Source: Acidimicrobiia bacterium (GTDB lineage Bacteria; Actinomycetota; Acidimicrobiia; Spongiisociales; SHLN01). Taken from it: 64,000 nucleotides of DNA. The DNA lies in NCBI GenBank assembly GCA_041567895.1, contig JBFGAX010000006.1, forward strand, positions 2,330 through 66,329, written 5' to 3'. Both the position numbers and the translations under genes were made by a program. Shown piece after piece: positions 17,773 to 42,481 of this stretch (position 1 is its first letter; each line of letters starts with the position of its first letter). Below the pieces are notes generated by a model. It searched no databases and was not told the DNA's origin. It saw nothing but the letters and a program-made list of their open reading frames with translations.

Positions 17773-18435
17773 ATGTTTCGGGTCCTGGCCCAGCCGCGAT
17801 GGTCCTTGGGCCTCCTCGTTGTCATTGTTGCCGCCGTTGGCTTCGTACTGCTCGGCTTCTGGCAACTGTCCAGACACGACGAGCAACAGGTTCGAAATGT
17901 GGCTTTGGCGAATCAAGAGCTCGTCGTCGGGTTGTCGCCGGAAGCCGGTGCATACCAGCTGGTAGAGGTCGAAGGTTCGTGGGAACCGGATTCGACCTTT
18001 GAGCTGGTACCTCGCAATCGAAATGGTGTGCTTGGTGCCTCGGTTGTATCGATATTTCTGACGCGCTCGGGCGAGTATCTGGCGGTTGACCGCGGGTGGA
18101 CTGACGCGATTGGAGAACTGCCAGAACCAGCACCCCTCGAGTCGGTCACGATCATCGGGCGGCTCATCGAGAGTCAGGATTTCGGGAGCGGTCCTTTGGC
18201 AGCCCGTAGATACGGCCGCCTCGATCTCGGCGCATTTGGTGCGGAGGTTGGAAAACCTCTGTTCCCACTTGCGCTCGTTGCCGATTCGATTTCCCCCGAT
18301 TCCACCGAACTTGCTCGCGACCTCCAACTCACGCCGTCGTCGACTCCACATCTGAGTTATGCCTACCAATGGTTCGCGTTCTCGGCCATTGTGGTGATCG
18401 GGTTCATATTGCTCCTTCGGAAAGTATCGAAGTGA
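17773..18435 (+). CDS. SURF1 family cytochrome oxidase assembly protein
   Basis: It has a TM helix at each end (LGLLVVIVAAVGFVLLGFWQLSRH ... HLSYAYQWFAFSAIVVIGFILLL) and the SURF1-characteristic motifs. Confidence 0.75.
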   Translation: MFRVLAQPRWSLGLLVVIVAAVGFVLLGFWQLSRHDEQQVRNVALANQELVVGLSPEAGAYQLVEVEGSWEPDSTFELVPRNRNGVLGASVVSIFLTRSGEYLAVDRGWTDAIGELPEPAPLESVTIIGRLIESQDFGSGPLAARRYGRLDLGAFGAEVGKPLFPLALVADSISPDSTELARDLQLTPSSTPHLSYAYQWFAFSAIVVIGFILLLRKVSK

Positions 18436-19375: not shown

Positions 19376-20029
19376 CTACAGCTCCTCTACCGCCAACAGC
19401 ACTTCTTCGAGGTCGAATGATCCAAACCACTGGAAGCGTCCCGTCCCGGTTTCATCAAACAGTATTGCACCAGGTTGACCCCGCACTCCGAGTTGCTGCC
19501 AGGAGTCGAATCCCGGGTCCCAGAGCATCGGGAACGATTTCGTGTCATAGGTTTCGACAAAGTCGAGTGCTTCCTGATAGGAGTCCTGAGTTCCGAGGCC
19601 GATGACCTGTACTGTTTCGGAGTGTTGTCGAGCAAACTGCTCGACCGCCGGCGCCTCACGCCGACAGAACGGTCAGTGGGGAGCCCAGAACCACAACAGC
19701 ACCGGTTTGTCGAGCGTAGCGAAGAACCTGGTATTGACCTGACCACCGGCGAGATCCTCGACGACAACATCGGGGAACTGCGATTCGGGAAATGGCCCGT
19801 TGATGGGGTCAACCTCGGCAGGCTCCGTCTCGGGAGCCTGGCCATCGGCAGGTTCTGGTGGGACGGGTTGGTCGTCGGTGCCGCTCTCGTCGGCTGTGGT
19901 AGCAGGAGCAGTGGTCGGGACTGTGGACGGAGTCGTGGTTGGAACCGGGGTCGGAGCGGATGTGGTGCCGCCACAGGAGGCGAGCACGAGAGCAGCCGCG
20001 ACCAGCGCGAGCGAAAGGCGGGTTTTCAT
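19376..20029 (-). CDS. Candidate selenoprotein: thioredoxin-fold TlpA/ResA-like lipoprotein with a UxxC active site (in-frame TGA at 19673..19675 read as Sec)
   Basis: MKTRLSLALVAAALVLASC is a lipobox signal, followed by a Pro/Thr-rich linker. The motif reads ...KPVLLWFWAPH-TGA-PFCRREAPAVEQF.... The TGA sits exactly where the first Cys of the CXXC motif should be. The downstream frame continues for 98 codons with a complete Trx fold (VQVIGLGTQDS...GVRGQPGAILFDETG). The ORF track splits this gene into 19673..20110 plus an uncalled 3' part. Confidence 0.55.
19646..19666 (-). other. Candidate bacterial SECIS-like hairpin immediately 3' of the in-frame UGA
   Basis: The mRNA sequence is UGUCGGCG-UGAGG-CGCCGGCG, an 8-bp stem (two G-U wobbles) with a 5-nt G/U-containing loop. 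It starts 7 nt after the UGA codon at 19673..19675. Confidence 0.3.
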
Positions 20030-20064
20030 CACGTGTACAACGTGCTGCGTGGCCCGAATGTTCC

Positions 20065-21087
20065 CTATCGTGGCTGGAGTCGGACCTCGGAGGCCTTGAC
20101 GCTCACCCACACCTGCTCTCCGACTGCGGCCCCGACGGCGGCCAGGCCGGCATGGGTCACGGTAGCCGTGATATCGATCGGTCCGGCGATACGTAACCGG
20201 GCGAGATCGAAGCTGGTGTCTGACGAGGCGATGGTGCCGATCCAGGCGTTGCGGGGACTTCCCTCGGGTTTCCGGCTGTGCAGTGACACCGCTCGCGGGT
20301 GCACGGTCACATATACCGATCCCCGCACGAAATCTGCTGACGACAGTACAGCCTCTCCCACGAGTACGCCTTCGTTGGTGGCGGTTCCGGAGTAGAGATT
20401 GAGCCCGACCAGCTCGGCTACGTAAGCAGATTGCGGCCGGGTCGTGAGCGTCTCAACAGTTCCGTCCTGAGTGACAGCTCCATGCTCGAGTACCACAATT
20501 CTCTCTCCGATGGTCGCCGATTCCCCGGGATCGTGAGTGACGACGAGTGCCGGAACCCCCATGACTGCCAGAGCGTCCTGGATCTGCTTCCGTAAAACGG
20601 GTCGCCGCTCCGCGTCTACCGCGGAGAGCGGTTCGTCGAGAAGCACCACGTCAGGGTTGCGAGCAAAGGCGCGCGCTAGTGCCGTTCGTTGTCGTTCGCC
20701 GCCGGAAAGTTGGGTGGGGTATTGATGTCGAAGACCGGTGAGATCAAATTGTTCGAGCCAGATCTCTGGATCTGCGGATGTCCCGAGTGCAACGTTCGAG
20801 GCAATGTCGAGATGGGGGAGAAGCAGATCGTCTTGAAACACCATGCCAATCGATCGCAGTTCCGTTGGTAGGGAGACACCGTTTCGCAACCAGGGTTCAC
20901 CGTTGCAAACGATGTGCCCACGAGCCGTGGGTTCCAGTCCTGCTATGCACCGCAGCAAGGTCGACTTGCCTGCGCCATTGGGACCGACGACGGCCACGGT
21001 CTCGGCACCGATCGCAGTCTGCACCCGAAGCGAAAACTCGGCGCGATCGAATTCGATGTCGATTTCGAGGGTCACTTCCGAATCCAT
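20065..21087 (-). CDS. modC: Molybdate ABC transporter ATP-binding protein ModC (with C-terminal TOBE/Mop domain)
   Basis: The ATG at 21085..21087 starts MDSEVTLEIDIEF... and leads into [25 protein letters not shown] and the C-terminal TOBE domain (IGTIASSDTSFDLARLRIAG). The upstream 273 codons of the track ORF overlap modB in another frame and are not coding. Confidence 0.85.
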   Translation of the reverse strand: MDSEVTLEIDIEFDRAEFSLRVQTAIGAETVAVVGPNGAGKSTLLRCIAGLEPTARGHIVCNGEPWLRNGVSLPTELRSIGMVFQDDLLLPHLDIASNVALGTSADPEIWLEQFDLTGLRHQYPTQLSGGERQRTALARAFARNPDVVLLDEPLSAVDAERRPVLRKQIQDALAVMGVPALVVTHDPGESATIGERIVVLEHGAVTQDGTVETLTTRPQSAYVAELVGLNLYSGTATNEGVLVGEAVLSSADFVRGSVYVTVHPRAVSLHSRKPEGSPRNAWIGTIASSDTSFDLARLRIAGPIDITATVTHAGLAAVGAAVGEQVWVSVKASEVRLQPR

Positions 21088-21842
21088 CCAACGCGAGTAA
21101 CTGCTGCCGCTGCGACGGCAACGGCGACGGCCAGCAGGCTCAGGGCGACAGCTTCGTCGATTCCTCGTTCCAGGCCGAGGAAGACGGCTAGCGGCAAGGT
21201 TTGCGTGACCTGCGGTCGGTTGCCTGCAAAGGTTATGGTGGCACCGAATTCGCCTATGGCTCGACTCCAGGTGAGGGCGGCTCCTGCGAGGATGGCATTG
21301 CGAGACATCGGCAAAACGATGTTCGACATTCGCTCCCACGGTCGAAGTCCGAGGGTTTTTCCCATGTCCAGGTAGCCAGGATCGAGCTGACGAAAGCCGG
21401 CCTCGGCAGCCAGAACCAGCAGGGGCATGGAAACAAACAGGACGGCTACGACAGCACCCGCCGTGGTGAACGAAAGAGCGATTCCTACCCGTTCGGCCAC
21501 AGCACCGAATAGTCCGCGCCGGCCGTAGGCGGCGGTGAGAGCCACGCCGCTCACCACCGGTGGCAACACGATCGGGATGAGGAGCAACCCCCTCGTTACC
21601 TGAACCCAAACGCTGGTCGACCGGGACAACAACCAGGCCAGGGGCAAGCCGAGTACGACCGCAATCAGGGTGGCAATCGAGCTCACAGCTATCGAGAGAA
21701 TCAATGGATTCCAGCCAGCTGACAGACTCTCGCCAATTGTCGACCAGGGCGCTCGCAGCAGCAGCGCCAGCACCGGGACGGCCAGGAACAGGACCCCGGC
21801 CATCGCCGCGAGGACACTTCCGATTCTGAATGCCTTGCTCAC
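21072..21842 (-). CDS. modB: Molybdate ABC transporter permease ModB
   Basis: The protein is 256 aa with 5-6 TM helices and the EAA-like loop of ABC permeases (LGLRPWERMSNIVLP). It overlaps the modC start by 16 nt. Confidence 0.85.
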   Translation of the reverse strand: MSKAFRIGSVLAAMAGVLFLAVPVLALLLRAPWSTIGESLSAGWNPLILSIAVSSIATLIAVVLGLPLAWLLSRSTSVWVQVTRGLLLIPIVLPPVVSGVALTAAYGRRGLFGAVAERVGIALSFTTAGAVVAVLFVSMPLLVLAAEAGFRQLDPGYLDMGKTLGLRPWERMSNIVLPMSRNAILAGAALTWSRAIGEFGATITFAGNRPQVTQTLPLAVFLGLERGIDEAVALSLLAVAVAVAAAAVTRVGWIRK

Positions 21843-32402: not shown

Positions 32403-32798
32403 ATGGAGAACATGACCGACACAGATTGGCGGGAGAAGCTCACGCCGCAACAGTTCGACGTGCTGCGAAACGCCGGCACCGAGGCACCATTCACGGGTAT
32501 CTATTGGGACGAGAAGCGACCGGGTGTATATCGGTGTGCCGGTTGTCAGTCGGATCTCTTCGTTTCTGACACCAAATTCGAATCCGGGAGCGGCTGGCCA
32601 AGCTTCTGGGAGCCGATTTCCGAAGATGCTGTGAAGCTCAAGGAAGACAAGAGCCATTTCATGACGAGAACCGAGGTGGTCTGTGCTACCTGCGATGGAC
32701 ATCTGGGGCATGTGTTCAACGATGGACCACAACCCACCGGCCTTCGTTACTGCATGAATTCGGCCGCGCTGGATCTCGAGCCAATATCCGACGACTGA
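32403..32798 (+). CDS. msrB: Peptide-methionine (R)-S-oxide reductase MsrB
   Basis: It has the two CxxC zinc motifs ([21 protein letters not shown]) and the catalytic motif [11 protein letters not shown] (Cys form, not Sec). Confidence 0.9.
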
Positions 32799-36976: not shown

Positions 36977-39900
36977 GTGAATAGCTACGCGAATCCCAAA
37001 GGGTCCTTTTCGAGGGTCGCGATCATCAACCGCGGCGAGGCCGCAATGCGTCTCATCCATGCCGTAGACGAAATAGCTCGAGAAGAACCACATCAGCTCC
37101 GCTCCATCGCCTTTCACACCGAAGCCGAACGCAAGGCCATGTTCGTGCGAGAAGCCCATGAGGCAGTGCGTATTTCGTCGGACAAGGGCAATCCTTATCT
37201 CGATTACGAGGCTTTGAGAAAAGGCTTGATCGACTCGAAAGCCGACGCAGCGTGGGTTGGATGGGGTTTTGTGGCGGAGCACCCGGAGTTTGCCGACCTG
37301 TGCGCCGAATTGGGGATCACGTTCATTGGCCCTCCTGGCGATGTGATGCGCCGCCTTGGGGACAAGATCGGCGCCAAAACGCTGGCCGAGAGTGTTGGCG
37401 TGCCCGTCTCCGCATGGAGCAATGGGCCTGTGTTGGATGAGGCCGACGCCCTCGCTCATGCTGAGCGAATCGGCTATCCGCTCATGGTCAAGGCGGCAGC
37501 CGGGGGAGGGGGTCGCGGTATTCGTCGCGTCAACGACGCATCTGAAGCGGCAGTTGCCTTCGCGCGGGCCAGCGCAGAGGCGTTGGCGAGCTTCGGAGAT
37601 CCCACGGTATTCATGGAGAGAGTTGTGACGGGCGCTCGTCATGTCGAAGTGCAGATTGCCTCCGACCACCATGGGAATTCCTGGGCTCTTGGCGTCCGGG
37701 ATTGCAGCGTTCAGCGCAAGCACCAAAAGGTCATCGAGGAGTCTGCATCGGTGGCTTTGGATCCTGATCAGGTCGCCGAGCTGGGCGAGGCGGCCGTAGC
37801 TCTTGCCAAGGCCGCCGAATACCGAAACCTGGGCACCGTTGAGTTCTTGTATCAGCCTCAAGAACGCCAGTTCGCGTTTCTGGAGGTGAACACCCGTCTT
37901 CAGGTCGAACATCCGGTTACAGAACTCACAACTGGACTGGACCTCGTGAAGCTTCAGCTCGAGCTCGCTGCAGGAAAGCACTTGGAAGGTGCTCCTCCGC
38001 ACGAGTTCGGCCACGCGATCGAAGCCCGTCTCAATGCCGAGGATCCCGAACACGGATTCGCGCCCGCACCCGGTGTCATCGAAGTCCTCAGTTTTCCTGC
38101 GGGTCCGGGTGTGCGTGTCGATACCGGAGTGGCCGAGGGTGACGAGATACCGTCGGATTACGACGCCATGATCGCAAAGATCATTGCCTGGGGAAGAGAT
38201 CGTGATGAGTCTCGCAGGCGGCTGGCGAGGGCGCTGTCCCATACAACGGTGGTGATCCAGGGCGGCACCACCAACAAACCATTTCTTCTCGACCTCATCT
38301 CCAGACCGGAGTTGATTTCGGGGGATTTGGATACGGGGTGGGTTGATCGTTTGACGGCGGCGGGCGAACACATCAATCTCGCATACGGCGAGGTCGCGCT
38401 CATCATTGCGATGATTGATGCCTGGGAATCCGAAACCGCCGCCGAACGAGCCGCGTTCCTGGCTTCCGCCGATCGGGGGAGGCCTTCGGCGGTGACAACG
38501 GTTGGTAAGAGTATTGAATGCTCGTACCGAGGTGAGAACTACGAAGTTTCCGTCCATCGGCTCAGTCCCACGAGATTTCAGGTTGGCCTCGATGGCCGGC
38601 TTGTTGAAGTTGACGTGGAGAGAGTTGGCCGGGTCGAGTCGAGGCTCACCATCAACGGCCGCATCTACGCGACCACCTCGGTCATTCACGGCGTCGACCA
38701 CCTCGTGGAGGTCGAAGGTGTCGCTCACCGGATATCGCGGGATGAAGGGGGCGTCATACGTGCCCCCGCTCCCTCCCTCGTCGTTTCAGTGACGGCCCGG
38801 GAAGGCGCGGACGTGAAAAAGGGCGATGCGTTGCTGGTCGTGGAGTCCATGAAGATGGAGACAACGCTCAACGCGCCATTTGCCGGTCGTGTGAGAGAAG
38901 TGCTTGTTGGTTCGAATACCCAGGTGGATGCCGGCGCACCGCTGATACGGCTGGAACAGGTTGCTGAGGATGATGAAGAAACCGTCGATCTCCCCAGGGT
39001 TTCCTTCTCAGAGCTAACCGGCGATCGGCCGGGCGATCCAACAGGAAAGCACCGTCTCCTTGATCTCCTCGAGCGCCTCAGGTGGGCAGCCGTCGGGTAT
39101 GACGTCGACCCCGAGCGGATCGCAACCTGGGCTTCTGAGTACGAGGAATTGAGAACAACGGTGGAGGCGGACCACGAAGAGATCCTCGCCGCCGAATTGG
39201 CACTTCTTGGTGCCTTCACCGATGTGCTTGCACTCAGCCGCAATCGCGCCTCGTCGACGTCCGAGCGCTCGGTCGAGCACAGCGAACAGGAGTACTTCCA
39301 TAGATACTTGCGTTCGTTGGACGTCGATGCCGAGGGATTGCCAGAGTCCTTCCGTCTCAAACTGTTGCGGGCGCTCGGCCATTTCGGCAAGAACGATCTC
39401 GAGCAGGGTCCGGACCTCGAAGAAGCCGTCTTCGGCATTTTCCGTGCTCAGCAACGATCCCGGGACACCGTGCCGATGATCAGGGCGATCCTCAACAGTG
39501 AGCCGGTTGAGCTCCACGATGTGAGCACGGCCATGCAGGATCGACTGCGGTCAACACTGGGTGATCTCATAACAACGACGCAGGTGCGGTTCCCGATCGT
39601 TGGCGACCTGGCACGAAGTCTGCGTTTTCGGACATTCGACGAGCCTGCGATTCGTGCATCATCGGAGCGCGTTATCGAACAAATGCGGCGCTTGCTGACG
39701 GAGTTGCGCAATGACCCGGAAGGTCCGGACTATGCGCGCCGGGTGGATGAACTCGTGCAGTGTCCAAGGGCGATCGTCGAACTTCTGGCCGATGAACCGG
39801 GCCCGGCGGCCACAGACCCGTTTCTCGAAGTCATGACGCGCCGCTACTACAAGACCCGCGACCTCGGGGATATCACGCTCGACGCAATCGGAGCGTTTCC

Positions 39901-42481
39901 GATCGCGGTGGCGGATTACTCGCGCTCGGGCCAGCCTCGCCGGGTCATTGCACTTCGCGCTGACGGCCCCGACATCGCCGAAGCGCTCTCCTCTCTGTCG
40001 AAAGTCGTGGCGACCCGTTTGGATCGCCCGGTTCTGTGCGATATCTATCTCCGACTCGAAGAGCCGATTCACGACAGCGACGAGATGGCCGATGATCTGA
40101 CCCGCCTCGTGCTCCAAGCTGATTTTCCCGATCACACGCGGCGAATAGCTGTAACGACGTGTGATCCCCAAGGCGCGGTTGAAAACTTCACGATACGTAA
40201 TGGTCGAGACGGCTTCTTCGAAGAAGCCGTCTTTCGTGGGCTCCAGCCCATGATCGCCCGCAGGCTTCAGCTTTGGCGACTGGAGAAGTTCGAGATGCGC
40301 CGGTTGCCTTCTCCGGACGATACATATCTTTTTCATTGCACAGCCTTTGATAATCCGAGAGATCAACGACTGATCGCAGTTGCCGAGGTGAGAGATATCA
40401 CGCCGGTTACAGACGAACAGGGACGGACAACGGGACTGCCTGAGCTAGAACACGTTCTTGCGGCCTGTCTCGACGGAATTCGTCGTGCCCAGGCTGATCG
40501 CCCCCAGAACCGAAGGCTCGAACTCAACAGGGTGCTTCTCAATGTATCTCCGGTGTCGGACATTCCATTCGACGATATGGCGGAGGTGGCGAGACGGCTG
40601 GCCCCCATAACCGACGGTATCGGACTCGATCAAGTGGTCGTCACGTTCAAGACCGCGGACCCCGGAGGGGGTGAACCGGTCGAGCTCGAGCTCCGGCTGT
40701 ATGTTCAGGAAGGCGTAGGGCTTTCGCTCGACATGTACACGCCCTCGACCAAGCCGATTGAGCCGGTGGATCCGTATACCCAGCGTGTTCTCGCCTCGCG
40801 GCGCCGGGGGGCCATCTACCCGTACGAGATCATTCCGATGTTGACTGGAGAGAGTGGCTCGTTCGTCGAATACGATCTGGACGAGGAAGGTCGCTTTGTA
40901 CAGGTCGAGCGCGAGGACGGGGAAAATCGCTCAGGCGTGGTAGCGGGGCTGGTAACGACCGTGACGGACCGATACCCGGAGGGCATGACCCGGGTCGCCA
41001 TCCTGGGTGATCCCACCAAATCACTTGGCTCGATTGCCGAGGCCGAATGCAGGATGATCATCGGTGCGCTCGAACTTGCGGAAGATCGAGGAGTCCCCGT
41101 GGAGTGGTTCTCGGTCTCTTCGGGGGCCAGGATCTCGATGGATAGCGGAACCGAGAACATGGACTGGATCGCTCGTGTGCTTCGACGAATCATTCAATTC
41201 ACGCAGGCGGGTGGCGAGGTTCACATCCTCGTTGCAGGGATCAACGTGGGGGCTCAGCCGTACTGGAACGCTGAGGCGACCATGCTCGACCACACCAAAG
41301 GCATCCTGGTGATGACGCCAGATAGTGCGATGGTGCTCACCGGAAAGCAAGCTCTCGACGTCAGCGGGGGCGTGTCTGCGGAGGACAACTTCGGCATCGG
41401 TGGCTACGACCGCATCATGGGTCCCAATGGTCAGGCTCAATACTGGGCATCGGACCTCGCCGAGGCATGTTGGGTTCTCTTTCGGTACTACGAGCACAGC
41501 TACGTGGCACCAGGCGAACGCTTTCCTCGAAAGGCCACCTCGATCGATCCAATCGATCGCGATATTCGAACCTATCCGCACGAGATCGAAGGCATCGACT
41601 TCACAACGGTTGGTGACATCTTTTCGGCCGAAACCAATCCCGATCGAAAAAAGCCGTTCGACATCCGGACGCTCATGAGAGCCGTAGCCGACCAGGATCG
41701 AGATCCGCTCGAACGATGGGAATCGATGCGGGATGCGGATACAGCTGTCGTGTGGGACGCTTTTCTCGGGGGACGCCCCGTTTGTATGATCGGTGTCGAG
41801 TCGAGACCGTTGCCGCGTCATGGCATCTTGCCTGCCGATGGACCTGATACGTGGTCAGCCGGAACCCTTTTTCCGTTGTCGTCCAAGAAGGTTGCTCGCG
41901 GAATCAACGCTGCCAGCGGGAGCCGTCCGCTCGTTGTGCTCGCCAACCTGTCGGGCTTCGACGGATCACCCGAATCCCTCGCGAAGCTGCAGCTCGAATT
42001 TGGAGCGGAGATTGGAAGGGCAATCGTCAATTTTGACGGACCGATTGTGTTTTGCGTTGTGTCTCGATACCACGGGGGAGCGTTCGTGGTTTTCTCGGGT
42101 GCCCTCCACGACAACATGCAAGTGTTGGCGGTCGAGGGTTCACACGCCTCGGTACTGGGAGGAGCTCCGGCGGCTGCTGTGGTTTTCGCCCGTGAAGTCA
42201 AGAACCGCGTTGACAGTGATCCGCTCGTCCAACGGCTGGAAGCGAGGATCAGCGAGCTCTCCGGTAGCAGCGACGTGACGGCAATCCGGGCCGAACTGGC
42301 AGAAGTTCGCCAGGCGGTGTATGCCGAGAAACTCGGTGAGGTTGCGGACGAGTTCGATGCGATCCACACCATCGAAAGAGCCCGCGACGTGGGATCGGTC
42401 GATCGGATCGTCGCCGCCGCCGACCTGCGTCCCGAACTCATTTCGGCCGTCGAGCGCGGAATCGCCGCCGCCGGACCGTAG
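36977..42481 (+). CDS. Single-chain multidomain biotin-dependent acyl-CoA carboxylase (BC - BT - BCCP - CT-N - CT-C; LCC-like)
   Basis: The 1834-aa protein has an N-terminal ATP-grasp biotin carboxylase (RVAIINRGEAAMRLIHA..., GYPLMVKAAAGGGGRGIR), a biotinyl domain with ALLVVESMKMETTLNAPFAG, and two carboxyltransferase halves. The domain order is that of the mycobacterial single-chain long-chain acyl-CoA carboxylase. Confidence 0.85.
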   Translation: MNSYANPKGSFSRVAIINRGEAAMRLIHAVDEIAREEPHQLRSIAFHTEAERKAMFVREAHEAVRISSDKGNPYLDYEALRKGLIDSKADAAWVGWGFVAEHPEFADLCAELGITFIGPPGDVMRRLGDKIGAKTLAESVGVPVSAWSNGPVLDEADALAHAERIGYPLMVKAAAGGGGRGIRRVNDASEAAVAFARASAEALASFGDPTVFMERVVTGARHVEVQIASDHHGNSWALGVRDCSVQRKHQKVIEESASVALDPDQVAELGEAAVALAKAAEYRNLGTVEFLYQPQERQFAFLEVNTRLQVEHPVTELTTGLDLVKLQLELAAGKHLEGAPPHEFGHAIEARLNAEDPEHGFAPAPGVIEVLSFPAGPGVRVDTGVAEGDEIPSDYDAMIAKIIAWGRDRDESRRRLARALSHTTVVIQGGTTNKPFLLDLISRPELISGDLDTGWVDRLTAAGEHINLAYGEVALIIAMIDAWESETAAERAAFLASADRGRPSAVTTVGKSIECSYRGENYEVSVHRLSPTRFQVGLDGRLVEVDVERVGRVESRLTINGRIYATTSVIHGVDHLVEVEGVAHRISRDEGGVIRAPAPSLVVSVTAREGADVKKGDALLVVESMKMETTLNAPFAGRVREVLVGSNTQVDAGAPLIRLEQVAEDDEETVDLPRVSFSELTGDRPGDPTGKHRLLDLLERLRWAAVGYDVDPERIATWASEYEELRTTVEADHEEILAAELALLGAFTDVLALSRNRASSTSERSVEHSEQEYFHRYLRSLDVDAEGLPESFRLKLLRALGHFGKNDLEQGPDLEEAVFGIFRAQQRSRDTVPMIRAILNSEPVELHDVSTAMQDRLRSTLGDLITTTQVRFPIVGDLARSLRFRTFDEPAIRASSERVIEQMRRLLTELRNDPEGPDYARRVDELVQCPRAIVELLADEPGPAATDPFLEVMTRRYYKTRDLGDITLDAIGAFPIAVADYSRSGQPRRVIALRADGPDIAEALSSLSKVVATRLDRPVLCDIYLRLEEPIHDSDEMADDLTRLVLQADFPDHTRRIAVTTCDPQGAVENFTIRNGRDGFFEEAVFRGLQPMIARRLQLWRLEKFEMRRLPSPDDTYLFHCTAFDNPRDQRLIAVAEVRDITPVTDEQGRTTGLPELEHVLAACLDGIRRAQADRPQNRRLELNRVLLNVSPVSDIPFDDMAEVARRLAPITDGIGLDQVVVTFKTADPGGGEPVELELRLYVQEGVGLSLDMYTPSTKPIEPVDPYTQRVLASRRRGAIYPYEIIPMLTGESGSFVEYDLDEEGRFVQVEREDGENRSGVVAGLVTTVTDRYPEGMTRVAILGDPTKSLGSIAEAECRMIIGALELAEDRGVPVEWFSVSSGARISMDSGTENMDWIARVLRRIIQFTQAGGEVHILVAGINVGAQPYWNAEATMLDHTKGILVMTPDSAMVLTGKQALDVSGGVSAEDNFGIGGYDRIMGPNGQAQYWASDLAEACWVLFRYYEHSYVAPGERFPRKATSIDPIDRDIRTYPHEIEGIDFTTVGDIFSAETNPDRKKPFDIRTLMRAVADQDRDPLERWESMRDADTAVVWDAFLGGRPVCMIGVESRPLPRHGILPADGPDTWSAGTLFPLSSKKVARGINAASGSRPLVVLANLSGFDGSPESLAKLQLEFGAEIGRAIVNFDGPIVFCVVSRYHGGAFVVFSGALHDNMQVLAVEGSHASVLGGAPAAAVVFAREVKNRVDSDPLVQRLEARISELSGSSDVTAIRAELAEVRQAVYAEKLGEVADEFDAIHTIERARDVGSVDRIVAAADLRPELISAVERGIAAAGP

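Follow-up and report, generated by a model that had tools for sequence, protein, structure and literature searches.

A candidate selenocysteine codon in a lipid-anchored thioredoxin-fold protein of Acidimicrobiia, followed by two conserved hairpins

TlpA of Bradyrhizobium, ResA of Bacillus and CcmG/DsbE of Escherichia coli are reductases that act outside the cytoplasm in the maturation of cytochrome c and cytochrome oxidase, and DsbF and DsbE of Mycobacterium tuberculosis are reported to act as oxidases. In E. coli fdhF the selenocysteine (Sec) insertion sequence (SECIS) is a mini-hairpin at 11 nt from the UGA that has GU in its loop (at about +23/+24) and a bulged U. UxxC thioredoxin-fold selenoproteins have been described from Sargasso Sea and Global Ocean Sampling (GOS) metagenomes (PMC1088965, PMC2398784), and a review (PMC13188914) lists them; among the catalogued kinds are a 'thiol-disulfide isomerase-like' family in cd02966 (TlpA-like) and the 'Prx-like thiol:disulfide oxidoreductases' (PF00578). 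The bacterial SECIS consensus model of Zhang and Gladyshev, summarised in the same review (PMC13188914), has the loop N1-G-[G/U]-N-N2 and a spacing of 16-37 nt. Here we describe a minus-strand gene in a 64,000 nt stretch of Acidimicrobiia DNA (contig JBFGAX010000006.1 of assembly GCA_041567895.1; the whole stretch is called the window below) in which an in-frame UGA takes the place of the first Cys in the redox motif of a lipid-anchored thioredoxin-fold protein. Judged from comparative sequence evidence, this is very probably a genuine Sec-decoding gene, because the TGA forms a Sec/Cys pair with homologs, is retained in orthologs, is followed by codons under purifying selection and by stem-loops that are absent from Cys-type homologs, and is otherwise an ordinary stop. 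The gene is a further member of the known UxxC TlpA-like selenoprotein class, in keeping with a preliminary description of this DNA that had named it a candidate selenoprotein.

The open reading frame (ORF) comprises 218 codons, internal TGA and final stop included (features in Table 1). The TGA stands in the context ...KPVLLWFWAPH-TGA-PFCRREAPAVEQF... (also written ...KPVLLWFWAPH-TGA-PFCRREAPAVEQFARQ...), and 98 sense codons follow it in an unchanged frame. The preliminary description placed this TGA at the first Cys of a CxxC motif and took the codons beyond it to complete a thioredoxin fold, and both points stand: the TGA aligns with the Cys of DsbF/DsbE and with that of at least 19 Cys-type homologs, which use TGC or TGT in this column, and the Pfam domains matched when the TGA is read as Cys cover residues 83-196, crossing it (AhpC-TSA, PF00578, 52.7 bits with a cut-off of 26; Redoxin, PF08534, 43.9 bits, cut-off 26.6; Thioredoxin_8, PF13905, 32.8 bits, cut-off 27). 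The N-terminus MKTRLSLALVAAALVLASCGG carries the lipobox LASC, and its signal peptide (MKTRLSLALVAAALVLASC) is kept in the orthologs P0014 and P0026 and in Cys-type homologs, predicting an extracytoplasmic protein anchored through the lipobox. Mechanical ORF calling gives a 145-aa product that runs from GTG 20110 to the TGA, as had been anticipated; this start (20030-20110, minus strand) overlaps the end of modC by 46 nt, and the signal peptide and the orthologs point to ATG 20029 as the true one. There is no conserved start codon just 3' of the TGA from which a separate C-terminal polypeptide might be made, and such a polypeptide would also lack the active-site nucleophile.

The best PDB matches are M. 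tuberculosis DsbF (3IOS, 1.7e-16) and DsbE/Mpt53 (1LU4, 7.9e-13), followed by CcmG/DsbE, ResA and thioredoxins. WFWAPWCPTC of DsbF and WFWTPWCPFC of DsbE/Mpt53 align with WFWAPH-U-PFC, the TGA falling on the first Cys of CPxC. Like the present protein, DsbF (Rv1677) and DsbE/Mpt53 (Rv2878c) are secreted or anchored actinobacterial thioredoxin-fold proteins with a WFWAPxCPxC...EAP active-site context, but they have Cys rather than Sec at the first motif position and Trp rather than His before it. With TlpA, ResA and CcmG/DsbE it shares the superfamily, a membrane-tethered extracytoplasmic topology and, at this locus, a SURF1 gene nearby; unlike in those systems no ccm, res or ccdA gene is adjacent, the neighbours being a molybdate-type ABC transporter and an endonuclease/exonuclease/phosphatase-family protein. 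NCBIfam scores far below the cut-offs (DsbE TIGR00385, 43.1 bits against 123.15; DsbE NF011941, 36.4 against 359; ResA NF002854, 40.1 against 170; the StoA model also matching weakly) indicate a member of the TlpA-like superfamily that is not a CcmG/ResA equivalog. The earlier label 'TlpA/ResA-like lipoprotein' is thus right as to superfamily and lipobox, but among characterised proteins its nearest relatives are mycobacterial DsbE/DsbF, not TlpA or ResA proper. With the catalogued UxxC selenoproteins the protein has in common the PF00578/PF08534 thioredoxin fold, Sec in place of the first Cys of CxxC, widespread Cys homologs, a post-UGA stem-loop whose small apical loop contains a G, and abundance in marine and estuarine metagenomes; beside them this clade is marked by the signature WAPH-U-PxC-RREAPxVEQFAR, the lipoprotein anchor and its Acidimicrobiia hosts. 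NCBIfam selenoprotein models gave no match.

That the TGA is a misread or misassembled TGC or TGT has a negligible probability, and nothing was found in favour of this. The identical 145-aa truncated ORF is recorded in 9 other public contigs with DNA 99.6-99.9% identical to the window, among them the MAGs (metagenome-assembled genomes) GCA_041614195.1, GCA_041633215.1 and GCA_041603165.1 and 5 independent Logan read-set assemblies of the same population; because these independent near-identical assemblies all show TGA and neither TGC nor TGT, as does every TGA-type ortholog, a base-call error is effectively excluded. The gene is also carried by GCA_013043185.1, by GCA_024638625.1 and by the MAGs to which JBFIPU010000002.1 and CAKZXA010000032.1 belong. 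One copy (L005:5873-5934, GCA_041581975.1, 99.67% identical to the window) lies 142 nt from the end of its contig, and mismatches clustered directly behind its TGA turn the resolving Cys into Val (PFV) and break the second of the hairpins described below (GTCGTGGAG); assembly noise near the contig end seems a likelier cause than biology.

Protein searches with the joined sequence returned four clusters of truncated fragments ending ...WFWAPH, annotated as hypothetical proteins in NCBI records and with N-terminal regions diverged to ~50% identity; the remaining matches were full-length homologs with WFWAPHCPxC, named TlpA family protein disulfide reductases by NCBI. In every case the DNA behind the truncated matches has TGA at the same codon and an intact frame downstream. 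A scan of species-representative genomes yielded 7 further TGA loci (all from Acidimicrobiia/Acidimicrobiales MAGs bar one 2-kb contig binned as Gemmatimonadota) and 18 TGC/TGT loci (Paraconexibacter, Microthrixaceae, Sporichthyaceae and others), and a metagenome scan at least 80 more, all of the listed ones with TGA, a share that is biased because EAPx[VI]EQFA, one of the two search patterns, proved specific to the TGA type. The TGA is kept at this codon in at least ~100 loci from MAGs and metagenomes (including L001, L002, L004, L005, L007, L008, L010, L013-L015, L024 and L033-L120), with at least 85 distinct 62-nt sequences and protein identity down to ~45%. The Gemmatimonadota-binned copy (L015, JBDHFS010000404.1, 2005 bp) is likely mis-binned, as all other TGA-type genome matches are Acidimicrobiia or Actinomycetota. 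In a subclade an FKBP-type peptidyl-prolyl isomerase domain is fused C-terminally (L007:159-911, L013:7604-8359 and ~6 other loci; PF00254 in P0027), and three loci (L089, L090, L103) hold two tandem TGA-type paralogs each.

Among closer orthologs, dN/dS over the 98 post-TGA codons is 0.04-0.12 at a dS of 0.9 to >2, and the 40 codons 5' of the TGA fall in the same regime. A pseudogene or natural truncation, with the 118-aa N-terminal lipoprotein fragment as sole product and decay of the frame beyond it, would agree with gene callers and NCBI, which annotate only the truncated product. That fragment, however, would have no part of the active site, and at least ~100 orthologs keep the downstream frame unbroken, with synonymous change saturated; purifying selection on the post-TGA codons across so large a synonymous divergence makes this explanation untenable, and we hold it to be extremely improbable. 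The argument that a simple pseudogene would not preserve such a frame is thereby upheld, and the orthologs, far from being uniformly truncated at this point, have conserved downstream frames. Reassignment of the genetic code was also considered and rejected: rough gene calls for the window have 28 of 56 genes, about half, ending in TGA, more than in any other stop, and the code is therefore standard. Because TGA is a normal stop in this organism, the internal one needs a local recoding signal.

Single-sequence folding of the RNA places two back-to-back hairpins after the UGA (positions count its U as +1). Hairpin 1, which begins at the 7th nt past the UGA, is the one noticed in the preliminary description, and folding recovers it as described or with a longer stem and smaller loop. 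In most of 85 TGA-type sequences its position is taken by a hairpin of 4-10 bp (mostly 7-8 bp), variable in sequence and register; in many metagenomic copies it reads GUCGGG-AAGCC-CCCGAC. Its loop occupies +19..+24. Measured against the bacterial SECIS consensus it is borderline in the window (loop GAG, 15 nt spacing) but meets the model in many relatives. The original suggestion that hairpin 1 is the SECIS element holds in so far as it is conserved as a structure, but the better fit to the consensus is hairpin 2, which had been overlooked. Hairpin 2 fits the consensus (PMC13188914), with a 5-8 bp stem, a loop of 3-5 nt that reads A-G-U-U-Y and a spacing of 34-35 nt from the UGA; in the window it has 8 bp, a GUU loop closed by an A-U pair (A-G-U-U-U), 35 nt of spacing and a minimum free energy of -11.1 kcal/mol.

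The core of hairpin 2, CGAGC-AGUUY-GCUCG (nt +33..+47), is nearly invariant, synonymous sites included: its Ala codon is GCT in all 85 sequences (GCT makes up 14% of Ala codons in window genes), its Glu codon GAG and its Gln codon CAG in 84 of 85 each, and GTC is kept in 81 of 85, while other Ala and Glu codons of the same gene vary freely. In loci L024 and L101, GUC...GAC is replaced by GUU...AAC, a compensatory exchange of a C-G pair for U-A, and in one of the L089 copies the stem has diverged but pairs again, as CUCGACC-AGUU-GGCUCGAG. When synonymous codons were resampled in 82 TGA-type sequences and 20 Cys-type homologs, mean stability z-scores were -2.0 (TGA types) against -0.4 (Cys types) for hairpin 1 and -3.3 against -0.1 for hairpin 2; the sequences being related, these scores are not independent trials. 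The contrast shows selection on the RNA structure itself, beyond what the protein sequence imposes. Across ~830 kb scanned there are 104 copies of the hairpin 2 core, each following a TGA at a distance of exactly 33 nt, bar the one in L006, which has TGG as that codon.

Hairpin 2 is also, at the DNA level, a near-perfect palindrome (TCGAGCA-N3-TGCTCGA) with almost no variation, and could in principle be an operator, leaving hairpin 1 alone as the SECIS element of what would still be a selenoprotein gene. The hairpin 1 loop at +19..+24 lies near the fdhF loop position, which suits this explanation, and covariation cannot separate an RNA from a DNA role for hairpin 2 because its sequence hardly varies. 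We nonetheless think an operator unlikely: the element is confined to TGA-type genes and always stands at the same 33-nt distance from the TGA, over half of the sequences have at its variable position 42 (U/C) a base that spoils the DNA palindrome yet is tolerated in an RNA loop, the compensatory changes in L024, L101 and L089 keep the pairing, and the loop A-G-U-U-Y matches the bacterial SECIS consensus pattern. Compared with the fdhF SECIS, two back-to-back hairpins here take the place of a single long interrupted stem, and a bulged U is not apparent; hairpin 1 is roughly in the fdhF position but has a GAG, AGC or GGC loop, and hairpin 2 has the GU loop but starts 27-29 nt after the UGA. A two-module SECIS in this Acidimicrobiia lineage, with the proximal hairpin as a spacer only and SelB reading the invariant distal 15-nt mini-hairpin, its loop 35 nt from the UGA, is a tentative proposal that we rate somewhat below an even chance; the spacing used would lie near the limit of the known bacterial range and far from the 11-nt rule of E. 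coli.

Several observations weigh against Sec decoding, or against this assignment of its signal. A pair-shuffle covariation test (12 sequences) was not significant, the distal hairpin varying so little that there is not much to measure. RNAalifold favours a different, weak long-range consensus fold (-8.1 kcal/mol), which we do not prefer given that single-sequence folds and resampling support the two local hairpins. The 27-29 nt between the UGA and hairpin 2 are far from the fdhF spacing, although inside the 16-37 nt consensus range. Neither selA, selB, selD nor a tRNA-Sec gene was found in the window (ARAGORN, Rfam, and Pfam on ~55 ORFs), and the SelB proteins of the class that were traced to contigs all come from assemblies other than those carrying the TGA gene. 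A codon-usage scan of the window for TGA-joined ORF pairs found no other selenoprotein gene, giving only antisense-frame artefacts; it missed the target gene too and is insensitive. Finally, one relative (L006:283-285; ENA contig BPAM22-1...scaffold_508956, 596 bp) has TGG (Trp) at the Sec codon, WAPH-W-PFC, with the hairpin 2 core kept; either a sequencing error may be at fault, the contig being short and of low coverage, or the allele may be genuine, whether inactivating or variant.

The missing Sec genes in the window and the Trp codon of L006 are what might be expected if the UGA were read through without Sec, a near-cognate or suppressor tRNA inserting Trp, Cys, Gly or Arg and the hairpins acting as a generic stimulator. 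This seems to us very unlikely. The codon occupies the position of the catalytic Cys, at which an active enzyme requires Cys or Sec and the Cys types use TGC or TGT; the distal hairpin agrees with the published bacterial SECIS in loop (N1-G-U-N-N2) and spacing range; SelA and SelB are widespread in the class; and TGA is the commonest ordinary stop in the window. To our knowledge, no conserved hairpin-stimulated read-through of UGA in bacteria has been recorded besides Sec insertion.

Evidence for Sec machinery in the class comes from outside the carriers' own loci. The window is free of tRNA genes and of Rfam matches, and at gathering thresholds Rfam finds neither a SECIS family nor tRNA-Sec there or among 10 TGA-type loci; Sec machinery genes were not found in the flanks of the TGA-type loci either, and ARAGORN gave no tRNA-Sec in 18 of them. 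An ARAGORN 'tRNA-???' (L014:7476-7565, 90 nt, two-base anticodon) is a false positive, lying inside an ORF and without an Rfam tRNA match. A tblastn search of 762 kb of collected locus DNA with approximate sequences of E. coli SelA, SelB and SelD gave one real match, a partial selB on an Acidimicrobiales MAG contig (L017:3-890, minus strand; TIGR00475, 253.6 bits with a cut-off of 242.25), which divergently adjoins a Cys-type member of the thioredoxin family (L017:1139-1741); matches in L062 and L073 proved to be CysNC and were rejected. With the L017 SelB as query, 4177 homologs were returned at E <= 1e-40, including many SelB-named matches in MAGs of Acidimicrobiia, Acidimicrobiales, Acidimicrobiaceae and Ilumatobacteraceae, and selA-selB pairs occur on four other Acidimicrobiia contigs. 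In the same class, selA, selB, selC and selD are reported from all complete Actinomarinales genomes (preprint 10.64898/2026.04.03.716425).

Gene calls split selB into two ORFs in each of two independent assemblies (L124:5001-6726, 457+124 aa; L125:437-2177, 450+131 aa) at a similar break point, the first ORF having an out-of-frame-looking tail and the second frame being open far upstream and encoding SelB-like sequence; an indel error, a pseudogene or programmed frameshifting could each account for the frame change. The selA gene of L124 is also split. MsrB-type enzymes are selenoproteins in some organisms; the window holds an MsrB (SelR domain) gene at 32403-32798 (plus strand) that has no internal stop.

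If the UGA is decoded as Sec, translation from ATG 20029 would reach it at 19675..19673, where the downstream stem-loops would recruit SelB-GTP-Sec-tRNA(Sec) and Sec would be inserted in place of termination. The distal mini-hairpin is the more likely SelB contact, being nearly invariant and having the G-U apical loop of the bacterial SECIS consensus, and the proximal hairpin, conserved only as structure, probably sets the spacing. The predicted product is a 217-residue, lipid-anchored extracytoplasmic thiol-disulfide oxidoreductase of thioredoxin fold with the motif U119-P-F-C122, which would be exported through the general secretory translocon and lipidated at Cys19. Sec119 and Cys122 would then cycle between selenol/thiol and selenenylsulfide, oxidising or reducing cysteine pairs of envelope proteins as M. 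tuberculosis DsbE/DsbF do with a disulfide. The SURF1 neighbour and the known roles of the family weakly suggest that the protein might serve in cytochrome oxidase or cytochrome c maturation.

What is new here is modest: the clade (Acidimicrobiia, lipoprotein-anchored, DsbE/DsbF-related), its abundance, its consistent mis-annotation, and a two-hairpin element with a frozen distal mini-hairpin. The understanding of Sec decoding is unchanged, UxxC thioredoxin-fold selenoproteins having been catalogued since 2004-2008. Public pipelines (NCBI MAG records, gene-call catalogues) truncate the gene to a 'hypothetical protein' of 118-145 aa, and an abundant family of at least ~100 loci is for this reason invisible as a redox enzyme. 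The selenoproteome of Acidimicrobiia, a class in which Sec use has only recently been noted (in the Actinomarinales preprint), would gain an envelope-located, lipid-anchored UxxC oxidoreductase, and the frozen distal hairpin offers a clean natural case for studying SECIS spacing and SelB recognition in bacteria outside Proteobacteria and Firmicutes. Should the two-module proposal be true, CGAGC-AGUUY-GCUCG would be a simple lineage-specific probe for the whole Acidimicrobiia selenoproteome, and the protein would be a widespread selenium-dependent envelope oxidoreductase of marine and estuarine Actinomycetota that current annotation misses entirely.

Table 1. Coordinates in the window of the candidate selenoprotein gene, its parts and two neighbouring genes
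Feature	Position	Strand	Remarks
Predicted selenoprotein coding sequence, complete	19376..20029	-	217 aa = 118 aa + Sec119 + 98 aa; ATG 20029 to TAG 19378..19376
In-frame UGA, proposed Sec codon (residue 119)	19673..19675	-	Sequence read directly
Predicted U-P-F-C redox motif (Sec119...Cys122)	19664..19675	-	Aligned to CPTC of DsbF, CPFC of DsbE/Mpt53 and CPYC/CPSC of Cys-type homologs
Hairpin 1 (nt +10..+30)	19646..19666	-	UGUCGGCGU-GAG-GCGCCGGCG; 9 bp with 3-nt loop or 8 bp with 5-nt loop
Hairpin 2 (nt +31..+49)	19627..19645	-	GUCGAGCA-GUU-UGCUCGAC; best candidate for the SECIS core
Lipoprotein signal peptide, lipobox L-A-S-C (Cys19)	19973..20029	-	Read directly from the sequence
Low-complexity Pro/Thr/Glu-rich linker, about residues 20-80 (~60 residues)	19790..19972	-	Length and sequence vary among orthologs
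Thioredoxin-fold domain, AhpC-TSA/Redoxin, TlpA-like type	19379..19783	-	Pfam
modC-like ABC ATPase	20065..21168	-	Pfam ABC_tran and TOBE; upstream, same strand, 35-nt gap
SURF1 (cytochrome oxidase assembly)	17773..18435	+	Pfam 4.3e-23; two genes away

The short gap to the modC-like gene on the same strand makes co-transcription possible, and the order modE-like, modA, modB, modC, TGA gene is kept in five loci (L001, L002, L004, L005, L113). On its other side the TGA gene converges on the endonuclease/exonuclease/phosphatase-family (Exo_endo_phos) gene, beyond which lies SURF1, a neighbour in at least ~18 TGA-type loci. Clustering of neighbours over ~100 loci gave no universal partner gene, modABC, Exo_endo_phos and SURF1 being restricted to closer relatives, and neither this clustering nor Pfam on the window showed cytochrome c maturation genes among the neighbours. 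Elsewhere in the window, an ORF of 1834 aa (36977-42481, plus strand) combines biotin carboxylase, biotin-lipoyl, ACC_central and carboxyltransferase domains, the architecture of a eukaryote-like single-chain acetyl-CoA carboxylase.

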